Shown: in pieces, positions 3,558-28,752 of the stretch | Numbering within the stretch: the first letter of the stretch is position 1 | Layout of the letters: each line of letters starts with the position of its first letter | NCBI GenBank assembly: GCA_000092065.1 | Contig: CP000584.1 | From: Ostreococcus lucimarinus | Lineage: Eukaryota | Direction: 5' to 3' (one strand) | DNA length: 64,000 nt | The notes under the pieces: model-generated | What the model was told of the DNA's origin: nothing | What the model saw: the letters and a program-made list of their open reading frames with translations, nothing else | Database searches by the model: none | Made by a program: the position numbers and the translations under genes

Positions 3558-4019
3558 CTAGTGCGTTTCCGCGAGCTCTTCCTCCCGCTGTCTCGACAGG
3601 TGCAACAGCGCGTCCACCCTTCGCTCGCGCGCCGCGCGCCTCGCGTCCACCTCCGCGCTCACCTCCTCGTACCGCATCCCTCGCCCCGGCTCCCCTCCCT
3701 CTTCGATGACATCGTATTGATCGTAATTCGCGTACCCTCTCGCGATCGCCTCCCCTCGCGCGTCTCCCTCGCCCCGCGTTCGCGCCTTCGCGACGTCCTC
3801 CGTCTCCCCCATCACCGCCCGTCGCTTCGCCTCGCGCAACCGTCGCCGCCCCGGATCGTTCCCACGCCTCCCGCGCACCACGCGCGCCATCTGTCGCCCG
3901 AGCGCGCACGCGACGCCCACCCCCAGCGCGAGATACGTCAGCGCGAACATCGCCCGCATCAAATTCGCGTCCCGTTCGACGCGCATCGCCGGCGGCGGCG
4001 GCGGCGGCATCGACGCCAT
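3558..4019 (-). CDS. small single-TM protein with charged C-terminus (hypothetical)
   Basis: Only the last ~153 codons of ORF 3558..4817 look protein-like (MASMPPPPPPAMRVE...MRAMFALTYLALGVGVACALG TM helix, then a K/R/E-rich tail). Upstream codons are S/A/R low-complexity. Confidence 0.3.
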   Translation of the reverse strand: MASMPPPPPPAMRVERDANLMRAMFALTYLALGVGVACALGRQMARVVRGRRGNDPGRRRLREAKRRAVMGETEDVAKARTRGEGDARGEAIARGYANYDQYDVIEEGGEPGRGMRYEEVSAEVDARRAARERRVDALLHLSRQREEELAETH

Positions 4020-4137
4020 GTCGGCGTCGAGGACCGGCGCGACGACGTCGAGGATCGTCGCGCGGCGCGCCTCGGTCGCCGCGCGTCGACGAGTCGCGAC
4101 CGTCGGCGCGCGCCGTCGACGCGTTCGGCCGCGGCGT

Positions 4138-8453: not shown

Positions 8454-9446
8454 CTAACCGCGCGGTTTTTGGTGTCGTCGCCGTCCGAGCGATTTCCAGA
8501 ACGCCTTGACCTCTTTCCGCGCGTTCGGACGTCCTCGGCCTCCGCAAAACGACTCGGCGTCTTTGCCTGGCGGAACAAAGCACGCGCACGAGCCGTGTTT
8601 TTTCACCTTCTTCACGCGCTTCAACACGAACCAGCGACGGACGCGTCGTTTCGACGACGAGCCTTCGCTCGTTATGAGCTTTCGATATCCCTCTCTGTCC
8701 TCGACCCAACCGTGCGCGCAAAACGTATCCATCCACCACCGCCTCGTTTGATACGTTTCGTCTTCGTCTCCCACCGGGCTCCCACCGTCGAGCGTCTTCG
8801 CCAGCGCGAACACCATCATCGCCCCTTTCTTCGCCACGCGCGTGGCTTCGTTTATCACCGGATCGACGTTTTCTTTCGTCGCCTTCATCTCCATCTTCCC
8901 GAACGTCTCGAACGCGACGACGTAATCGAAAAACGCTCGTCGATACGGCAAGCGCCGCAACGACGCCGCCGTCGCCACGCCTTTCGCCGCCAAATCTCCC
9001 CCCCGATCGCGCGTGCGCGCGATTCTCGGATCGACGCCCACTATCTTAAACCCTCGTTCTCGCATCTCTCGCAAAAACGTGCCCGTGCCGCACGCCAGCT
9101 CCAATCCGCGCGCGTCTCGCCGCCGTCCCGCCGCCGCGCGCACGAACGCCCCCATCCCTTCGCACGCCCCGCACGTCGCCCGCATCTCCGCCTCGCCGAT
9201 CGTCACCGCGCGCGTCTCGTCATCATCATCCTCCGCTCGCCCTCGCGCGAACCACGACGCGAGCGCGGACGGCGGCGCCGGCGGCGCGCGCACGCGCGCG
9301 CCGTCCGGTCGAACGAACGTCGTCGCGTTCGCATCTTTCGACGCCGCGCGGTGCGCCCACGTCAGCGTCGCGCACGCGACGGCGACGAGGACGAAGAGCG
9401 TCGGTCGGCATCGCCTCGGGCGCGCGACGACGCGCGAGAGCGCCAT
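8454..9446 (-). CDS. class I SAM-dependent methyltransferase with N-terminal signal/anchor
   Basis: Only the 3' two-thirds of ORF 8454..9917 looks real. It starts MALSRVVARPRRCRPTLFVLVAVACATL (signal-like) at ATG 9446. Motif I LELACGTGTF followed by RGFKIVGVDP. CTGTAAC on the minus strand lies just past the stop. Confidence 0.6.
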   Translation of the reverse strand: MALSRVVARPRRCRPTLFVLVAVACATLTWAHRAASKDANATTFVRPDGARVRAPPAPPSALASWFARGRAEDDDDETRAVTIGEAEMRATCGACEGMGAFVRAAAGRRRDARGLELACGTGTFLREMRERGFKIVGVDPRIARTRDRGGDLAAKGVATAASLRRLPYRRAFFDYVVAFETFGKMEMKATKENVDPVINEATRVAKKGAMMVFALAKTLDGGSPVGDEDETYQTRRWWMDTFCAHGWVEDREGYRKLITSEGSSSKRRVRRWFVLKRVKKVKKHGSCACFVPPGKDAESFCGGRGRPNARKEVKAFWKSLGRRRHQKPRG

Positions 9447-22016: not shown

Positions 22017-23942
22017 TCATTCGCTCGAAACCGGCTCTTTTCCGCCGCCGCCGCACACCTCTTCGCCGTCTTCTTCGCTTTCGTCACCGAGCATAAAGGC
22101 ATCCGACTGCATCGCATTCTTCTGCATAGAGATAGTCGTACCTTTACTCACGCTCGGCGTACCACCGACGCGATTGAAAGTTGTTCCCGGTTGATCCATG
22201 CGCGATTCCGTGCCGGTGGCGTGCGACGGGCTGTCTGGTCGGCGCAAGTGCGTACCGTCAAGCATCGCTCGTGTATCCATGGCAGCGTTATCGTCGACGT
22301 TTTGGAAAGAGCTGAACCCACCTCCGAAAACTCCAGCACTCATGGCGCCATCGGTTTCCCCCTCAACTTCACCGTGCATACCCAAGCCACCGCTGGCGAC
22401 GTAGCCGGCGTTGGGGTAAGAGAACAGTTGCCCGCCCTGCGCGCTCGATCCCGCCATGCCGCTCATGGGCATCGTCCCCCAGGACACTCCTCCCGGTGCG
22501 CCGATGAACGACGATGCGATACCACCCCGTCGTGGTGCGTGGAGAGCGACATCACGTCGGTGAGTGGCTTCGCGCAAATCCGCGACGAGCCCCGGATCAT
22601 CGGGCGTCATTTCCAACGCCTTGGTCAAGTCGCCGATGGCGGTGCCGAAATCTCCCTCGGTCACCGCGGCGAGCGCTCGCGCCTTGAGTGCGAGTGCATT
22701 GTTCGGTTCGCGCGCGAGCGCGCGAGCTGCGAGTTCACCCGCTCGCACGGGATCGGCTCTCCGAAGCGCGCACGCGCTCGCTTCGAGCAAGCACGCCGTC
22801 TTCAACTGTGAATTTCGCTCCGACGATCCACCCGTCTCTTCGGTTTCAAACATTTCAATTTGATCGATAAATCGCAGGGCGTGTCCGTACGCGCGCTCGG
22901 CGGTGCCGAAATTCTCGATCGCCTTGAGCGCATCCGCGCGAGCCTTGAGCTCGAGCGACGCCGGAACGAGCGATTCTCGCGGTACGTCCCACGGTTCTTG
23001 ATTATCCCACCGCGTCGGCGCGGGCAGAATGATTTGCTTCGATTCGACCTCGGTACCGACACCTGCCGCTCCTCCCTCACCGGCGAGCAAGCTTCCAGCC
23101 GCCTTGATGTCGCCACATTCCACCTCTTCGCTATTGCCCAGGCCCGAATCCGCGCGCCCGCCTTCGCCGCGCGAATTCGTAAGCCTCTGCGCCTCGGTCG
23201 AATCCACCGGACGCGCGCGGTCGCTCGACACCGCCGCCGTGTTCGAATCTCCCGCACTATTCGCCGGCCGCTGTGCGTGTCCGTGCACCGTGCTCGAACT
23301 CCCCGTCGCGCCTCCGCGCCCGCCGACGCGACTTCGCGTCAACCCGGGCGCCGCGCCGCGCCGCGCCGCGCCGTCCGCATTCGTCGCGTCGACCGTCGCC
23401 GCCGCCTCCTCACCCATCGCCCGCGCGCGCGCCCTCACATTCCCGGCTTCGTCTCCGTTCACGACGTCGTCGTTCGACCGCACGGCTTGCGAGTTTTGAA
23501 TCGAGTGCGTCGCCGCGCGTCGCGCCCCTTCGTCCCCGATCACCGTGGCGTGTCCCGGATTTTCGATCGACCGCGTCACCGCCGCCGCGTCCACCGCGGG
23601 CATTCGTGTCTCGTATCCGCCGTCGTCGTCCAAGTCTCTCGCGGACCGTTCGACGTCCGCGTCGTCGTCCGCGTCTTCGTCCCCTCGTCGCGTCCCGCGT
23701 CCCCGTCGCCGCGCTTCGCCCGCGCCGCCCGCGCCGCCCATCCCGAACGCCGATCCCGACGATTGCGCCGCGCGCGTCGCCGCGGCGCGCTCGGGCGACG
23801 CCCGCAGCGCGTCGTCGTCGAGGCGTTCGGCGCCGTCCGTTCGCATCAGCATCGGACTCAGATGGGTGTCACCCTCGGACGTCGTCGCGTCGAGCGTCGC
23901 CAGCGACGCCGCGCCCGTGGATCCGCCCGCGCTGCGCGCCAT
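22017..23942 (-). CDS. TPR-repeat protein with long disordered N-terminus
   Basis: The C-terminal third has tandem TPR-like helices (AERAYGHALRFIDQ.., ARALAREPNNALALKARALAAV.., GTAIGDLTKALEMTPDD). ORF 22017..24437, but the first 165 codons are R/D/V low-complexity, so the start is set at ATG 23942. Confidence 0.5.
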   Translation of the reverse strand: MARSAGGSTGAASLATLDATTSEGDTHLSPMLMRTDGAERLDDDALRASPERAAATRAAQSSGSAFGMGGAGGAGEARRRGRGTRRGDEDADDDADVERSARDLDDDGGYETRMPAVDAAAVTRSIENPGHATVIGDEGARRAATHSIQNSQAVRSNDDVVNGDEAGNVRARARAMGEEAAATVDATNADGAARRGAAPGLTRSRVGGRGGATGSSSTVHGHAQRPANSAGDSNTAAVSSDRARPVDSTEAQRLTNSRGEGGRADSGLGNSEEVECGDIKAAGSLLAGEGGAAGVGTEVESKQIILPAPTRWDNQEPWDVPRESLVPASLELKARADALKAIENFGTAERAYGHALRFIDQIEMFETEETGGSSERNSQLKTACLLEASACALRRADPVRAGELAARALAREPNNALALKARALAAVTEGDFGTAIGDLTKALEMTPDDPGLVADLREATHRRDVALHAPRRGGIASSFIGAPGGVSWGTMPMSGMAGSSAQGGQLFSYPNAGYVASGGLGMHGEVEGETDGAMSAGVFGGGFSSFQNVDDNAAMDTRAMLDGTHLRRPDSPSHATGTESRMDQPGTTFNRVGGTPSVSKGTTISMQKNAMQSDAFMLGDESEEDGEEVCGGGGKEPVSSE

Positions 23943-25120
23943 GTCGGCGCGCGCGACGCGCGAAGACGCGTCGCGGTGTGCGACTCGGCGGCGTCCGCGC
24001 GGCGGGCGACGCGAACGCGAACGCGAGACGCGCGCGAACGTCGAGGTCGATATCCCGAATCGTCGATGTGAATGAATTACACGAATCACACAAAAAGTTA
24101 GTTCGTTTCCCAGCGCTCGCTCGTCGCGATGACGCGTCGAAATCGCCCGTCGTCGCGTCACCGCGCGTTGGGATCGAGCGGAAACGACGCGCGCGCCGCG
24201 TCGCTCGGAAACGGAAACGGAAACGCGACGCCGACGCCGACGCCCGCGATCGCGCGCATCGCGTCGATCGTCATCGTCGACGACGACGACGACGACGCGC
24301 GGTGCGCGTGACGCGCACCGCGACGCCCGCCGCCGCCGCGTCCCGTCGACGCCGGCTCGCCTCCGTCTCGCGCCGGCGACGACGCGTCTAGAACTTCGTC
24401 GTCCGTCGCCTCCTCCGTCGTCATCTCCGCGTCCCACGAAGCGAGTCGTCCCGTCATCGTCGACGTCGACGTCGTCGGCGTCTCCGAGTCGTTCGCTTCC
24501 TCGCGCTCGCGCTCGCGCTCGTCCCGCCTCGCGTCTCGCTTGGCCAGTCGTCCGTCGCGCACGCCGACGGCTTCGACGTACGCGTCTCGTCTTCGCTTGC
24601 GCCCGCGCGCCGCGCGCGCGGCGTCACCGTCGTCGTCCATGGAATCCACGTCGCACGCGGCGCGCGCGCGCGCGTTTTCGAACGAACGCGCGAACCACCG
24701 GTCGGTGATTGATTGTATTGATTTTTGAACGCGATGCGCTCGAGCTCGACGCCGCGACGACGCGACGACGCGACGACGCGACGCGCGACTACCGACGACG
24801 CGACGACGACGATCGCGACCGATCGGATCGATCGCGCGTCTCGCGGTGTCGCGCGCGCGGCGTCGAACGCGCGTCTTCCATCGATCGATTCGACGCCCGC
24901 GTCTTCTCGGCGACCGACCGAACGCGACCGACGACGCGATCGCGACGAACGGCGCGTTCGACCGACGTCGAGATCGAAATCGAACGATCGCACCGCGATC
25001 GATCGGTGCGATCGAACCTCGACGCGTCGATCGAACGATCGTCGAATCGCGCGATCGACCCATCTGGATCGCCGTCGGCGCCGACGTCACGCCCGGCGGC
25101 ACAGCGCGACGGACGACGCC

Positions 25121-25331
25121 ATGAGCGACTGGGCCGACGACAGCGGCGATTTACCACCCCTGAGCGCGGGACTGCCGCCGCCACCGACGACGACGACGAC
25201 GACGACGATACCGAAACCGTCGACGTCGGTGCCGGCGCCGCAGGTCGCGTCGCCGCAGAAATCGGGATACGTCCCGCCGCATCTGCGGAATCGGCACGCG
25301 GCGGCGGGCGACGGCGGGTCGCGAGGATTCG
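25121..25331 (+). CDS. DDX3/Ded1-like DEAD-box helicase, exon 1 (eIF4E-binding YxPPHLR motif)
   Basis: MSDWADDSGDLPPL...SGYVPPHLRNRHAAAGDGGSRGFG ends at TTCG|GTGCGT (donor at 25332). Unspliced, the frame hits a stop at ~25397. Not linked to the helicase ORF in the track. Confidence 0.6.
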
Positions 25332-25579
25332 GTGCGTCGACGACGACGGCGCGACGCGCGCGAACGACGGCGACGGCGACGACGAGAGGGAATTTTTAAT
25401 CGATCGATCGCGCGCGCGCGATGACGCGCGAACGCGTCGCGCGAGAGAGGGGACGCACGCGATCGCGATCTCGACCGCCCCGCACGATGGCGACGGGCGA
25501 TAACATTGAGGCGTAACCCTGGACGAGCGCCGAGGCGGGCGACTGACGACGAACGACGCGCGCGGTTCCGATCGAGCAG
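25332..25579 (+). other. spliceosomal intron (248 bp) of the DDX3-like gene
   Basis: GTGCGT donor, CGACTGACGAC branch site, GAG/CAG acceptors at 25576/25579 (both in phase 1). The CAG is chosen. Confidence 0.55.
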
Positions 25580-27193
25580 GCGGTGACGATAGACGAGGCG
25601 ATGGATGGGATACCGGACGCGACCGCGGCGGCGGTGGATGGGGCGGCGGCGGCGGCGGTGGATGGGGCGGCGGCGGCGGCGGCGGACGGTTTTCGCGCGG
25701 GGAAGACTACGGCGGGACGTCGTTCGGGCGGCGAGACGATCGCGGGGGAGGAGGCGGAGGATGGGACACCGGACGGTCGCGATTCCGCAGAGAAGATAAC
25801 CCGTTCGCGCAAATGGAAGAGGAAGAAGCGGCGGCGGCGAGAAACGATCCTGACTCCGAGGCGACGAAGATGTTTACCGGCGAAAACACCGGTTTGGACT
25901 TTGACCTGTACGACGACATTCCCGTGGAGACGAGCGGACGCGACGTGCCGGAGCCCATCACTTCGTTCGTCGACCTCGACCTCGGGGCGGCCGTGAACAC
26001 GAACATCAAGAGATGCAAGTTTAAGAATCCGACGCCGGTGCAAAAGTACGCCATTCCAGCTTCGCTGGCGGGAAGAGATTTAATGGCGTGCGCGCAGACG
26101 GGTTCCGGTAAAACGGCGGCGTTTTGCTTTCCCATCATCGCCGGTATCTTGAAGCGCGGTCTTCAAGGCGGTCATATGAACCGCAAGACGTATCCTCTCG
26201 CGCTCGTGCTTTCGCCGACGCGCGAATTGGCGAGCCAGATTCACGAAGAATCGCGGAAGTTCGCGTACCAAACCGGCGTCGCCTCGTGCGTCATCTACGG
26301 TGGCGCTCCGGCGGTGGAACAATTCCGCGCCATGGAACGCGGGTGCGACATTCTCGTCGCCACGCCGGGTCGTTTGATCGATCTCATCGATCGCGCTAAG
26401 ATCTCGTTGAGCAGAGTTCAATATCTCGCGCTCGACGAGGCGGATCGCATGTTGGATATGGGTTTCGAGCCGCAAATTCGACAAATCGTCGACGAGCGCG
26501 ACATGCCGCGATGTGGCGAGCGTCAAACGATGTTGTTCTCCGCAACGTTCCCGAGGGAAATCCAGCGAATGGCTTCGGACTTCTTGGACGATTACGTCTT
26601 TCTCACGGTCGGTCGCGTCGGCTCTTCGCACGCGTTGATCACGCAATCCGTCGAGCGCGTGACTTCGTACCACGAAAAGAGCAATATGCTTCTCGATTTG
26701 GTCGAAGCCGTGCCGGGTTTGACTTTGGTTTTCGTCGAAACGAAGCGAGGTGCGGACCAGCTCGAGGATTTCTTGTACCAAAACGGTAAGCCCGCGACGA
26801 GCATCCACGGCGATCGCACGCAGCAGGAGCGCGAGGCGGCGTTGAAATCCTTCCGAGCGGGTAAGACGCCCATCCTCGTCGCCACGGACGTCGCGGCGAG
26901 AGGTTTGGATATTCCTCACGTCACCCACGTCATCAACTTTGACTTGCCATCGGATATCGACGACTACACGCACCGCATCGGTCGTACCGGGCGCGCGGGG
27001 AAGAAGGGTCGGGCGACGGCGCTGTTTTTAGAATCCAAAGACGGCCAAATGGCTCGCCCGTTGACGGAGCTCATGAGCGAGGCGAACCAGGAAGTGCCGA
27101 CGTGGTTGACGCAAATCTCTGGCCATTCCTTCGGCGGTGGTGGACGTCGTCGCGGTGGTGGTGGCGGGAATAGATTCGGCGGTCGCGACTACC

Positions 27194-27240
<47 letters not shown>

Positions 27241-27255
27241 TGGGGCCGCGAGTAA
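25580..27255 (+). CDS. DDX3/Ded1-like DEAD-box helicase, exon 2 (G/W-rich linker + helicase core + Gly-rich tail)
   Basis: Frame is open upstream of the track ORF (25813..27255) and encodes a DDX3-like RGG/GW region ([25 protein letters not shown]...[30 protein letters not shown]). Acceptor CAG|G at 25579, 31 nt after the ACTGAC branch site. Core motifs [29 protein letters not shown]. (GGC)15 Gly tail. Confidence 0.65.
27196..27240 (+). repeat. (GGC)15 microsatellite encoding the poly-Gly tail of the DDX3-like helicase
   Basis: Direct read. Confidence 0.85.
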
Positions 27256-27617
27256 ATCGACCCGCCTCGCGCGTTCGCGTTCCGAGTATGAAATCCTAGA
27301 TGTGTGCATCTGTTAGATGTTAGACATTCGTGTTGTGACTATTTTCTACACTATCCCACTACGCCATCACACGTCCCCTCGCGTCTCGGCCGCCGACAAA
27401 GACGACGAAGCCTCGACTCGACGAAAACGGTCCCGCGCCCGCCCCCCTCGCAAAAGATTCCTCTTCGGCACGCGTAGGAATAAAAAACCAAAATCACCCC
27501 GAAACCCCGTATACAACGTGAAACGAGTCGATGTACCGCGCACCCCATTTGTGCGACGGCGTCCCCCGCCTCGTCGTCGCGGCGTCGTCGTCGCGGCATC
27601 GCGCGACGCGTCGGACG

Positions 27618-27680
27618 ATGAAGTTCGGTCAGCTCTTCGCCGCGACGACGGCGTCGATGGCGCCGAACGTGCGAGAGCAG
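27618..27680 (+). CDS. SPX-domain protein, exon 1 (21-codon micro-exon MKFGQLFAATTASMAPNVREQ)
   Basis: MKFG is the canonical SPX N-terminus. CAG|GTGCGC donor at 27681. The exon lies inside a junk ORF (27531..28034) in the track. Confidence 0.55.
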
Positions 27681-28020
27681 GTGCGCGACGCGAACGCGCG
27701 AGCGCCCGGAACGACGCGACGACGACCGCGCGAACGACGACCGCAAAACGGGGCGACGGGCGATGGCGCGGTAGAATATTCCCAGCGCGCGACCGTCGCG
27801 GAGGGGGGGGGAGGGCGCGCGTCGCGCGCGTCGCGCGCTCTAAAGAGAGACAAGAATGCGCGCGAAGGATGCGCGCGAGGACGCCGCGAATGGGGACGGT
27901 TCGCGCGCGATGGTGGGCGTCGAGCGCGCGAAGACGGCGAACGGAGGGCGGCGAGACGCGCGAACGACTCGAGGGCGTTGACTGACGGATTCACGCGATG
28001 CACGCGCGCGGGAAGCGTAG
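27681..28020 (+). other. spliceosomal intron (340 bp) of the SPX gene
   Basis: GTGCGC donor. TTGACTGACGG branch site 33 nt before the AG acceptor. Confidence 0.5.
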
Positions 28021-28752
28021 TTTTTGGATTATAAACTCTTGAAACAGGTGTTAAAGACACTTCCGGAGAATAAGGGCGATGTGAAGCCCGCGACGGCGGG
28101 GGAGGTTCACGCGGGGGAGCGGGCATTCGTGCAGGCGCTGTCCAACGAGTTGAAGAAGTTTAACGAGTTCTTCATGAACAGAGAGGAGGAAATCGTCATG
28201 AAGGAGGGTCATTTGCAGCAGTTATTCGATCAGAACGAAGAGCGCATCGCGAGCGCGTTGAGCGCGGGGGTGTACGACGACGCGTGTTTGGCGGGAGACA
28301 CGGGCATTTGCCAGAAATTTGCCAACTTTCACGGAGAGCTCGTGTTGTTGGAGCACTGGACCAATTTAAACTACGCGGCTTTGGTGAAAATTTTGAAGAA
28401 GCACGATAAGCGATCGAGCTTGGCGCTGCGTTCTCCTTTCCTAGTCAACGTCCTGCAGCAGCCTTTCTACAGCACGGAGGTGCTCACGGCGATGATCGGT
28501 CGCGCCGAGGAGCGATTCCGCGCCATCGAGCACAGGATTCGAGAATTCTTGGGCGAGCACGTCCCGCGCGCTGAGCTCGGGACATCGCCGCAGGTGCAAC
28601 TGAGGGTATCATCGGACGGAAGCGAGATTAGCGACGACGACGACGACGCCTATTCCATCGAGCACACCAAAGCCGCTCTGAACTGCTGGCAAGGTTTGGA
28701 CAAGAGCGAGGCTTTGCAAAACCCGCTCGGCACGCCTCACGACGTTCAGTGA
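28021..28752 (+). CDS. SPX-domain protein, exon 2
   Basis: The track ORF 28024..28752 starts at a TTG, not an ATG. Joined in phase 0 after acceptor TAG| at 28020 it reads ...REQ|FLDYKLLKQVLK (SPX YIDYKxLKK box). Further SPX boxes: LKKFNEFFMNREEE and LNYAALVKILKKHDK. Confidence 0.7.
   Translation, partial: FLDYKLLKQVLKTLPENKGDVKPATAGEVHAGERAFVQALSNELKKFNEFFMNREEEIVMKEGHLQQLFDQNEERIASALSAGVYDDACLAGDTGICQKFANFHGELVLLEHWTNLNYAALVKILKKHDKRSSLALRSPFLVNVLQQPFYSTEVLTAMIGRAEERFRAIEHRIREFLGEHVPRAELGTSPQVQLRVSSDGSEISDDDDDAYSIEHTKAALNCWQGLDKSEALQNPLGTPHDVQ

Follow-up and report, generated by a model that had tools for sequence, protein, structure and literature searches.

Where does the protein begin that is encoded by the long helicase reading frame in the middle of this stretch of Ostreococcus lucimarinus DNA? 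Within the window, as we call the whole 64-kb stretch that was analyzed, this frame specifies a DEAD-box helicase of the DDX3/Ded1 type, and its first ATG lies at 25813. The preliminary description treated that ATG as an annotated start and proposed that a hidden first exon, in a separate frame farther upstream, supplies the actual N terminus. On the basis of the sequence and of comparison with related loci, we consider it highly probable that the gene is nuclear and consists of two exons, with exon 1 at 25121 to 25331, a phase-1 intron, and exon 2 at 25580 to 27255. The principal elements of this model are as follows (W denotes the locus in the window, L numbers denote related loci or contigs, and L020 is that of O. 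tauri):

25121 to 25331, + strand: predicted coding part of exon 1, 211 nt (70 codons plus 1 nt), encoding MSDWADD...LPPL...SGYVPPHLRNR...SRGFG
25332 to 25579, + strand: predicted spliceosomal intron, phase 1, 248 nt (245 nt with the GAG acceptor at 25576); its GT...AG removal restores the helicase frame
25580 to 27255, + strand: predicted exon 2, running from the G/W-rich segment through the helicase core to the TAA stop codon at 27253 to 27255
25813 to 25815, + strand: codon of the internal Met149, the first ATG of the long open reading frame (ORF)

The frame opened by the ATG at 25121 to 25123 reads MSDWADDSGDLPPLSAGLPPPPTTTTTTTIPKPSTSVPAPQVASPQKSGYVPPHLRNRHAAAGDGGSRGFG and then arrives at G/GTGCGT (25331/25332; the slash marks the exon boundary), so that the MSDW...SGYVPPHLRNR segment and its end, as first described, can be read directly from the sequence. 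Exon 1 and the helicase ORF are in different frames (25121 mod 3 = 2; 25813 mod 3 = 1), and because exon 1 measures 211 nt, the intron is of phase 1. The helicase frame is indeed open upstream of Met 25813, over 303 nt (from 25510) rather than the roughly 240 nt originally estimated, and 233 nt of this (25580 to 25812) fall within exon 2. The spliced product would comprise 628 amino acids with the CAG acceptor or 629 with the GAG acceptor, and its junction, ...GGSRGFG/GDDRR..., parallels the unbroken ...GGAPGFGDRD... of P0130, an independent chlorophyte homologue. According to this model, transcription would begin at some point upstream of 25121, translation would initiate at the ATG at 25121, and splicing would join exon 1 to exon 2, most likely at 25580 and otherwise at 25577. 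The first exon would then contribute a disordered N terminus, with conserved Trp-Ala-Asp residues at its start and with the YVPPHLRNR box, and exon 2 would contribute a low-complexity linker rich in Gly, Trp, and Arg, with an in-frame 24-nt repeat, followed by the helicase core and an RGG-rich tail.

Four candidate splicing or regulatory elements are recognizable in the predicted intron:

25332 to 25337, + strand: 5′ splice site GTGCGT
25513 to 25520, + strand: short conserved motif GTAACCCT, similar in sequence to a telomere repeat or telo box
25541 to 25548, + strand: branch-site-like GACTGACG, the putative branch A of which lies 33 nt 5′ of the CAG acceptor
25574 to 25579, + strand: tandem NAGNAG acceptor GAG/CAG, in frame at either AG, the two products differing by one Ala

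The boundaries, G/GTGCGT...CAG/G, are of the GT-AG type with a strong donor; GTGCGTCG(AC) is common to L008, L002, and the annotated O. tauri intron, and L001 has GTACGT. At the same position and in the same phase, the intron measures 248 nt in W, 267 nt in L008, 378 nt in L002, 460 nt in L001, 395 nt in L005, and 325 nt in O. tauri. Four Ostreococcus-like lineages have the exon, the phase-1 position, and a CTGAC-AG architecture in common, with introns of 248 to 460 nt that have diverged in sequence; in a Bathycoccus-like locus, this position is likewise occupied by a phase-1 intron, without CTGAC. The GACTGACG-type branch motif is found 30 to 37 nt from the acceptor in L008, L002, and L001, and the stretch from GACTGACG to the acceptor is the best-conserved part of the intron. 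Among EST-confirmed O. lucimarinus introns outside chromosome 2, ACTGAC occurs in 87% and GACTGACG in 66.5% (PMC2483917). In the window as a whole, the GACTGACG 8-mer shows no enrichment (6 occurrences against 4.9 expected); we rejected it as a stand-alone signal, and it counts through its position and conservation only. The telo-box-like GTAACCCT at 25513 to 25520 is the sole noncoding instance in the window, and GTAA(A)CCC(T/C) recurs on the same strand of the same intron in L008, L002/3, L007, and O. tauri, in introns that are otherwise diverged. In land plants, telo boxes link genes to the translation-apparatus regulon. A second TAAACCCT in the window, at 9047, was rejected as a regulatory parallel, as it lies within a long minus-strand ORF. 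Finally, an Rfam scan of 24400 to 28200 gave three sub-threshold chance matches and no intronic snoRNA or other RNA.

Orthologues of exon 1 were found at L001, L002/3, L005, L008 to L016, L018, L019, and the O. tauri locus L020. Conservation of the exon extends across Ostreococcus-like loci of the W, L008, L002, and L001 types, to a Bathycoccus-like locus, and to O. tauri. With L008 as the sister lineage for the comparison of identity and indels, conservation begins exactly at the ATG: the region upstream is 67.6% identical and has many indels that are not multiples of three, and exon 1 is 95.2% identical, with indels of 3 and 3 nt. The intron stands at 79.4% (indels of 4, 3, 1, 1, 1, 1, 4, 1, and 5 nt), the exon-2 extension at 97.6% (indels of 24 and 3 nt only), and the helicase ORF at 96.8%. 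Substitution density in exon 1 plus the extension is far below that of the intron (p = 3e-12) and like that of the helicase ORF (p = 0.64); synonymous and nonsynonymous counts (4 versus 5 in exon 1, 2 versus 3 in the extension) are too few to reveal purifying selection. These figures bear out the earlier proposal that the G/W-rich stretch is coding. The hidden first exon holds up as well, being conserved in sequence, phase, and position across relatives, and the same construction is seen in the curated protein of O. tauri (XP_022838882.1/CEF97774.1). Two contigs conflict with this picture: in L009 the G/W-rich segment is interrupted by an in-frame TGA, and in L010 exon 1 has lost 1 nt. Neither change recurs in any other of the 10 contigs, and the assemblies are error-prone, with other contigs frameshifted within the core itself (P0121 and P0128); we read both changes as assembly errors and rejected them as evidence against coding.

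Searches for the spliced product itself were made at the level of transcripts and of proteins. JGI metagenome and metatranscriptome contigs, a collection that may hold no O. lucimarinus transcripts, were scanned for exact matches to both possible exon-exon junctions (GAGGATTCG-N{0,3}-GCGGTGACGATAGACGAGG), with 0 matches, and a search with the spliced N terminus recovered 10 related loci, all of them unspliced genomic DNA. None of the predicted spliced proteins of W (with both acceptors), L001, L002, and L008 was present, by exact look-up, in a collection of 15 billion proteins. An N-terminal protein search brought up nearly identical ORFs for exon 1, along with full-length homologues that are distant, and no spliced Ostreococcus representative, because the O. 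tauri protein sits inside a cluster whose representative is truncated.

We therefore weighed other readings of the locus. One would have the helicase translated from Met 25813, with the MSDW...YVPPHLRNR ORF and the G/W stretch as noncoding DNA (5′ UTR, uORF, or GC-rich microsatellite). The longest ATG-initiated ORF does begin at 25813, prokaryote-style callers on related contigs yield truncated or intron-read-through products, and no spliced transcript was found in the contigs searched. However, Met 25813 is just the first Met of the long ORF and not a conserved start: the codon is CAG (Gln) in L008, and Gln also stands there in L002 and O. tauri. Beyond exon 1, these genes have no Met until residue 191 in L008, 246 in L002, and 229 in O. 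tauri, in each case past the GLDF motif (at 168, 182, and 165, respectively) and, in L002 (228) and O. tauri (211), also past the Q motif, so that without exon 1 these three would start too far downstream to yield an intact helicase. Moreover, the supposedly noncoding stretches evolve like the helicase ORF, with indels in multiples of three only, whereas the intervening intron does not; in Cymbomonas, Botryococcus, Bryopsis, and land plants, homologues have W-A-D, YVPPHLR, the G/W-rich segment, and NPF in this order in one polypeptide; and the curated O. tauri model includes both parts. Translation from Met 25813 in this manner is, in our view, extremely improbable, and sequence comparison supports the conclusion that this Met is not the start codon.

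A weaker version, in which the full-length protein is accompanied by a regulated, truncated isoform that starts at Met149 (through an intronic start site or intron retention) and lacks the YVPPHLR box and the G/W linker, strikes us as very unlikely. An in-frame Met does directly follow the NPF motif in W and L001, and contig L007, of 2,163 nt, might derive from RNA, since it extends from within the intron to just beyond the stop codon. L007 may, however, be plain genomic DNA or pre-mRNA, and there is no sign of an internal promoter; furthermore, because the Met is lacking in the closest sister lineage, L008, as well as in O. tauri and L002, such an isoform is not a conserved feature. Returning to the two-exon, full-length model, CAG at 25579 is favored as the predicted main acceptor. 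Use of the GAG (intron end at 25576) as the main or a substantial alternative acceptor, giving by NAGNAG splicing a 629-residue isoform with ...GF-A-GGDD..., appears unlikely, even though both AGs of the GAGCAG tandem keep the frame, the GAG is kept in all W-type contigs and in L008, and one extra residue should be tolerated in what is a disordered segment. The order of preference among acceptors is CAG > TAG > AAG > GAG, and GAGHAG is typical where the downstream AG alone is used (68.6% of such cases) (PMC2699507); in addition, CAG stands alone in L002, in L007, and in the O. tauri intron as annotated.

Directly downstream of the predicted junction, the sequence first thought to look intergenic or repeat-like contains two nested features:

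25580 to 25812, + strand: G/W/RGG-rich coding extension, 233 nt, 5′ of the first in-ORF Met, conserved as protein in P0001 to P0003 and O. tauri
25625 to 25686, + strand: 24-bp tandem repeat, unit GGGGGGGW

Tandem Repeats Finder recovered the repeat noted in the preliminary description (2.6 copies, 97% matches, score 117), and its translation is G4W-G7W-G7 followed by (R), rather than the G4W-G8W given there. A whole 24-nt unit is missing in 5 of the 10 environmental contigs of W and closely related types, and 21 nt are missing from the repeat in L008; both changes are in frame. It is conceivable that the N terminus is tunable, by way of the 24-nt G7W unit and the tandem acceptor, and, separately, that the intronic telo-box-type motif is an enhancer that ties the gene to the translation-apparatus regulon, a pair of ideas to which, taken jointly, we assign a low probability. 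If they were true, the number and spacing of Trp residues would vary in the segment that holds the eIF4E-binding Trp in yeast Ded1, and eIF4F docking or condensation behavior could change with repeat variation in wild Ostreococcus. A role of the GW motifs as an Argonaute hook was considered and set aside; Ostreococcus is reported to lack core RNAi genes.

The remainder of exon 2 encodes the helicase proper and its C-terminal tail:

26032 to 27000, + strand: DEAD-box helicase core, RecA1 and RecA2, with motifs Q, I, Ia, Ib, II, III, IV, V, and VI (HRIGRTGR by regex)
about 27079 to 27099, + strand: subfamily motif EANQEVP, residues 571 to 577, just 5′ of the range of the C-terminal tail
27121 to 27252, + strand: RGG/Gly-rich C-terminal tail, containing RDYR and ending in GWGRE

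All core motifs are complete, including DEAD (motif II) and SAT (motif III), and the Pfam domains DEAD (residues 222 to 400, E = 6.5e-49) and Helicase_C (residues 437 to 544, E = 1.7e-34) were recognized. In a PDB search, DDX3X scored 533 bits, Vasa 412, Dbp2 384, and DDX17 325; by such search scores, the predicted protein is nearer to DDX3/Ded1 than to other DEAD-box subfamilies. The best named database matches were RH37, RH52, and "DDX3X." The parallel with plant RH37/RH52 drawn at the outset is thereby supported, the alignment running through the W-A-D, YVPPHLR, G/W-rich, and NPF landmarks, and by its sequence the predicted protein is of the plant RH37/RH52/RH11 class. Members of the subfamily carry an N-terminal YxxxxL(h) "eIF4E-binding" motif, the last residue of which is Arg or Lys in more than 80% of them, a conserved GINF N-terminal to the core, EApQEVP after motif VI, and a C-terminal RDYR (PMC7912733). 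The GINF position reads GLDF in 5 of 5 Ostreococcus sequences aligned and GINF in other green algae and plants; a regex search placed EANQEVP at residue 571 and RDYR at residue 606. The pattern OxxxOxxLxO of a nuclear export signal (NES) rich in leucine had no N-terminal match, its sole regex match lying inside the core at residue 444; as an N-terminal NES is not generally recovered across the subfamily (PMC7912733), it is a weak criterion for membership. Nor do the last five residues include the Trp doublet seen in about 70% of members or the Trp-Asp seen in about 20%: the protein ends in ...GGWGRE, with a single Trp four residues from the end, and its relatives end in GWGRQ, GWGMQ, or GGWD. 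This terminal element is a frequent, not a universal, feature of the subfamily.

What exon 1 would add to this core includes one short motif:

25268 to 25294, + strand: YVPPHLRNR, residues 50 to 58 (by regex), the N-terminal YxxxxL(R/K) box of Ded1/DDX3

Residues Y50, P52, P53, H54, L55, and R56 are invariant in a 10-sequence alignment (A1), and YVPPHLR agrees with human DDX3X 38-YIPPHLR-44 in 6 of 7 residues. At every locus with a complete motif exon, the motif recurs 5′ of the orthologous helicase and in a frame different from that of the called ORF, and YVPPHLR (residues 50 to 56) is in the protein only if exon 1 is spliced on. We take residues 21 to 27 of yeast Ded1 to be the putative equivalent of this box. 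The conserved YxPPHLR box of the preliminary description is thus real, and the function given to it there, eIF4E binding, is a label from human DDX3X, whose 38-YIPPHLR-44 binds eIF4E (PMC9642913, where Shih et al. 2008 is cited for the binding). In yeast Ded1, residues 21 to 27, including Y21 and the highly conserved R27, are determinants of eIF4A binding, and the eIF4E determinants are residues 59 to 65 and 83 to 89, including W88 (PMC7343385). Since the former residues are eIF4A determinants, the name of the box is not usable as its function, and its functional label is disputed between the human and the yeast work. Candidates in the N-terminal part of the algal protein for comparison with Ded1 W88 are W80, W91, W99, and W132. 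By homology, the protein would serve as a translation-initiation helicase, the disordered N terminus of which would use the YVPPHLR box and the conserved segment that contains Trp to dock on eIF4F components (eIF4E and/or eIF4A), and the core of which would unwind structured 5′ UTRs.

The main value of these results lies in annotation. ORF-style callers run on picoeukaryote DNA miss exon 1 in every case and either truncate the protein at an internal Met or read into the intron (P0001 to P0004, P0011, and P0014), and clustering of the protein collection has placed the correct O. tauri model behind a truncated representative. Such calls would wrongly imply that the DDX3 of Mamiellales has no N-terminal partner-binding box. 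With the two-exon model, the plant DDX3 architecture (W-A-D, YVPPHLR, Gly/Trp linker, core) is confirmed in the smallest free-living green algae, and a correct full-length sequence is supplied for functional work.

Several known systems resemble the gene described here. The gene for yeast Ded1, a protein of the same subfamily, is not known to contain an intron. The Ded1 core matches that of the algal protein with an E value of 6.5e-98 (8pnk), and in its disordered N terminus, too, the box is accompanied by a conserved Trp with Gly-rich surroundings (PMC7343385). Human DDX3X is the best relative with a solved structure (E = 1e-158 over residues 166 to 613); its residues 38-YIPPHLR-44 correspond to algal 50-YVPPHLR-56, and EA.QEVP and RDYR are common to both. 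The two differ in that the algal protein has no match to the N-terminal Leu-rich NES pattern of DDX3X and in that the linker is Gly/Trp-rich in the alga and Ser/Arg/Gly-rich in DDX3X; eIF4E binding through the box has been demonstrated for the human protein only, and for the algal protein it is putative. The land-plant proteins RH37, RH52, and RH52B (RH11 class) are 55 to 62% identical over 86 to 97% of the query and share the order M..SWAD, (A/G)YVPPHLR(N/G), a Gly-rich part with GGW, NPF, and NTG(I/L)(N/D)F, together with the RDYR-type and EANQEVP motifs. They have GINF instead of GLDF, end in ...SAWD/SSWE instead of GWGRE, and have longer, less regular linkers without the 24-nt repeat.

The closest system is the orthologue in O. 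tauri RCC4221, annotated as "Helicase, C-terminal" (XP_022838882.1/CEF97774.1; UniProt A0A090M6L0) on CAID01000004.2. Over the helicase part, its cluster representative, P0004, shows 92% identity to the W protein, and across the first 190 residues of the O. tauri model the figure is 74% (alignment A1). The annotation of O. tauri was guided by RNA-seq and manually curated, with 89% of introns validated by RNA-seq across the annotation as a whole (PMC4378021). We reproduced the model from CAID01000004.2: a single 325-nt phase-1 intron with donor GTGCGTCGAC, ACTGAC, and a CAG acceptor, located at about 886897 to 887221 of that contig and at 3200 to 3524 of L020, follows the YVPPHLRNR...G-rich end of exon 1 and is itself followed, as in W, by the G/W-rich segment, NPF, and the core. 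A GTAAACCC-like motif is present in the introns of both species. The downstream gene calls at the O. tauri locus look different from those in W. Within the gene, O. tauri has 616 amino acids and an intron of 325 nt versus 628 amino acids and 248 nt in W, no GAG before the CAG acceptor, Gln in place of Met 25813, only the first G4W and one long Gly run without a duplicated G7W unit, and His/Asp as the junction residue, where W has Gly/Gly. The two-exon structure first proposed is correct but ordinary, the O. tauri orthologue being already annotated in the same way.

The window is GC-rich (55 to 69%), with introns and neighboring genes that look like those of an Ostreococcus-like green alga. Upstream of the helicase ORF (480 amino acids; first ATG at 25813, stop codon at 27253-27255), the preliminary description had placed a separate frame running from MSDW to YVPPHLRNR and ending in a G before GTGCGT. 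This frame was indeed present: opened by the ATG at 25121, it differs from the helicase frame, reads MSDWADDSGDLPPLSAGLPPPPTTTTTTTIPKPSTSVPAPQVASPQKSGYVPPHLRNRHAAAGDGGSRGFG, reaches G and the donor GTGCGT at 25331/25332 and, if left unspliced, meets a stop codon at 25397-25399. Since exon 1 measures 211 nt, the intron is of phase 1; GAGCAG at 25574-25579 supplies two AGs, each of which restores the helicase frame (629 or 628 amino acids). That frame is open upstream of Met 25813, as proposed, but for 303 nt (back to 25510) rather than about 240 nt. Likewise, the 24-bp tandem repeat was recovered by Tandem Repeats Finder (25625-25686; 2.6 copies, 97% matches), but it encodes G4W-G7W-G7 and not G4W-G8W. 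An Rfam search over the helicase region found nothing.

Features of the helicase gene (strand as presented)
25121-25331, exon 1
25332-25579, phase 1 intron
25580-25812, G/W-rich extension (predicted start of exon 2)
25813-27255, helicase ORF

The gene was compared with syntenic loci conserving the order helicase-SPX gene-Tcp11 gene (L001, L002/L003, L008, and L009), ten metagenome loci (L010 to L019), a Bathycoccus-like locus (L005), two Micromonas-like loci (L004 and L006), and the O. tauri reference (L020). In every locus reaching far enough upstream, M(S/A)(D/N/T)(N)WAD...LPP...YVPPHLRNR is encoded ahead of the helicase, and wherever a complete motif exon was found, its frame differs from that of the called ORF. 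Four Ostreococcus-like lineages share a phase 1 end of exon 1 at a G followed by GT(G/A)CGT, and a CTGAC motif 30 to 37 nt before the frame-restoring AG; their introns measure 248, 267, 378, or 460 nt. Against L008, the sister lineage, conservation begins exactly at the ATG, ends exactly at the donor, and returns at the branch motif.

Comparison of the window with L008
Upstream region (24438..25120): 67.6% identity; many indels, not multiples of 3 nt
Exon 1: 95.2% identity; indels of 3 and 3 nt
Intron: 79.4% identity; indels of 4, 3, 1, 1, 1, 1, 4, 1, and 5 nt
G/W-rich extension: 97.6% identity; indels of 24 and 3 nt only
Helicase ORF: 96.8% identity; one 15-nt indel and one 1-nt pairwise-alignment gap

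The 1-nt gap is not a frameshift, since the L008 model translates unbroken to the same C terminus. Exon 1 and the extension together had a substitution density indistinguishable from that of the helicase ORF (P = 0.64) and far below that of the intron (P = 3e-12); synonymous and nonsynonymous counts against L008 were too few to inform. The identities and in-frame indels thus bear out both the hidden first exon and the coding nature of a stretch that looks intergenic or repeat-like.

The arrangement proposed for the window is not new to the genus: the same structure is annotated in O. tauri. Protein XP_022838882.1/CEF97774.1 begins MATWADD...SGYVPPHLRNR, and its model, rebuilt from CAID01000004.2, has a single phase 1 intron after the YVPPHLRNR exon, with a G before the donor GTGCGTCGAC, an ACTGAC motif, and a CAG acceptor; it differs from the window gene in protein length (616 versus 628 amino acids) and intron length (325 versus 248 nt). 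That annotation was RNA-seq guided and hand curated, and RNA-seq validated 89% of its introns (PMC4378021). Among EST-confirmed O. lucimarinus introns outside chromosome 2, ACTGAC occurs in 87% and GACTGACG in 66.5% (PMC2483917), a pattern that the helicase-intron branch motif fits; the GACTGACG 8-mer alone showed no enrichment within the 64-kb window. Because only the CAG acceptor, not GAG, is common to L002, L007, and O. tauri, and because GAGHAG typifies tandem acceptors using the downstream AG only (preference CAG > TAG > AAG > GAG; PMC2699507), we infer, and favor, an exon 2 start at 25580.

The rival reading is initiation at Met 25813, the first ATG of the long ORF. An exact scan of JGI metagenome contigs for the spliced junctions gave 0 matches, the related loci found were all genomic, and the predicted spliced proteins were absent from the public protein collection. 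However, this ATG is CAG (Gln) in L008, with Gln also in L002 and O. tauri, and in these three the first Met downstream of exon 1 is at residue 191, 246, and 229, respectively, beyond the GLDF motif and, in two of three, beyond the Q motif as well. Exon 1 therefore holds the sole start codon giving an intact helicase, which argues strongly against a start at 25813. Two defects interrupt the spliced frame, each in one of 10 contigs: a G-to-T change at ~5987 of L009 (window ~25750), which puts a TGA in frame within the G/W-rich segment, and a 1-nt deletion within the YVPPHLR codons of L010 exon 1 (window ~25283). In L009, the conserved FDLY motif also carries a D-to-Y substitution, and P0121 and P0128, from contigs of the same assembly kinds, carry frameshifts inside the helicase core. 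Being unique, the TGA and the deletion are probably assembly or sequencing errors, although they could conceivably be rare null alleles.

In Mamiellales, every public ORF-style call for this gene (P0001-P0004, P0011, P0014, and P0207) has an incorrect 5' end, either reading through the intron or beginning at an internal Met. The cluster that hides the correct O. tauri model (P0206) is represented by a truncated 474-amino-acid ORF; a second O. tauri model, OUS49698.1 (P0207), lacks the N terminus and overruns the P0206 stop, continuing into SPX exon 1. L007 (JGI 3300016833; 2163 nt) begins 307 nt into the orthologous intron and runs to ~146 nt past the stop codon, its ORF having no Met before FDMYEDIPVE; if the sample is a transcriptome, the contig would come from unspliced pre-mRNA or reflect an intronic start site. 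In the Micromonas-like loci (L004, 3335.. and 3584..3823; L006, 2512.. and 2698..), the N terminus appears split by an extra intron, with an M(S/PGD)WADD...LPP exon apart from a KPAYVPPH(L/A)RNR exon without in-frame Met; L004, a long-read assembly, has YVPPHARNR, with Ala replacing Leu of the YxxxxL box. In L005 (~3899..4070), the G/W segment (...FGRRDD...GGWDTGRS) and the downstream DPFAQMEAED helicase ORF lie in different frames, probably reflecting a 1-nt indel in a polished long-read assembly and not a genuine divergence.

The 24-nt G7W unit (25625..25686) varies in copy number, always in frame, among environmental contigs of the window's own and closely related types: an extra unit is present in the window, L010, L011, L012, and L016, exactly 24 nt are missing in L009, L013, L014, L015, and L018, and 21 nt are missing in L008. 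A telomere-repeat-like motif, GTAA(A)CCC(T/C), lies in the helicase intron of five Ostreococcus lineages with otherwise diverged introns.

Intronic GTAA(A)CCC(T/C), sense strand
window, 25513..25520
L008, ~5408
L002, ~979
L007, ~115
L020, ~3360

The 64-kb window has a single copy each of TAAACCCT and GTAACCCT (~0.2 expected for each), and the motif was not present in L001 or the Bathycoccus-like or Micromonas-like loci. A similar sequence, the plant telo box AAACCCTA, is found in 5' regions of translation-apparatus genes (PMC3022908).

On the 5' side, 24438..25120 is the fastest-evolving segment, full of CGA/CGACG-type short tandem repeats, and separates the helicase gene from a divergently oriented gene (long ORF 22017..24437, minus strand; beside a TPR-type gene in syntenic loci). 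Presumably the two genes share it as promoter and 5'-UTR sequence; the GC-rich ORFs listed there are artifacts. The next downstream gene, encoding an SPX domain (27618..28752), is also intron split, and ORF callers begin it at an internal TTG (28024).

SPX gene
27618..27680, exon 1, encoding MKFGQLFAATTASMAPNVREQ
27681..28020, intron; donor GTGCGC, GACTGACG at 27980, acceptor TAG
28021, start of exon 2, with FLDYKLLKQVLK

The predicted spliced product matches Pfam DEAD (E = 6.5e-49) and Helicase_C (E = 1.7e-34); its closest solved structure, human DDX3X (E = 1e-158), outscores Vasa, Dbp2, and DDX17. The suggested parallel with plant RH helicases held, RH37, RH52, and RH52B standing with "DDX3X" among the top named matches (55 to 62% identity, 86 to 97% of the query). 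The DEAD-box core motifs form a complete set and, of the Ded1/DDX3 subfamily features (reference list, PMC7912733), YxxxxLR (as YVPPHLR, residues 50-56), EANQEVP, and RDYR were found, with GINF taking the form GLDF; motif search of the spliced protein found neither an N-terminal NES pattern nor a C-terminal WW/WD. W132, in the G-rich extension, is nearly invariant in a 10-sequence protein alignment, and the extension may for this reason contribute to eIF4E binding.

YVPPHLR had been labeled an eIF4E-binding box; the motif is there, but the label does not by itself give its function. We take residues 21-27 of yeast Ded1 to be the equivalent of YVPPHLR. This Ded1 segment, which contains Y21 and the highly conserved R27, provides determinants of eIF4A binding (PMC7343385), whereas in human DDX3X an eIF4E-binding site was mapped to 38-YIPPHLR-44 (PMC9642913). 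By homology with these two proteins, the box is best described as a putative eIF4F-docking motif, with eIF4E as the partner in human and eIF4A in yeast.

Overall, the preliminary observation and its interpretation are correct, with small corrections to the numbers. The gene structure is standard and conserved for a well-known helicase family; it is of use for gene-model correction and as a warning on ORF-style calls from picoeukaryote DNA. At residues 1-7 (25121..25141), M-x-x-W-A-D is kept from Ostreococcus to rice and Hibiscus, with Trp4 invariant and Ala5 and Asp6 nearly so in the alignment. Where the metazoan and yeast homologues have an N-terminal NES, not detectable here, the algal protein has M-x-x-W-A-D.
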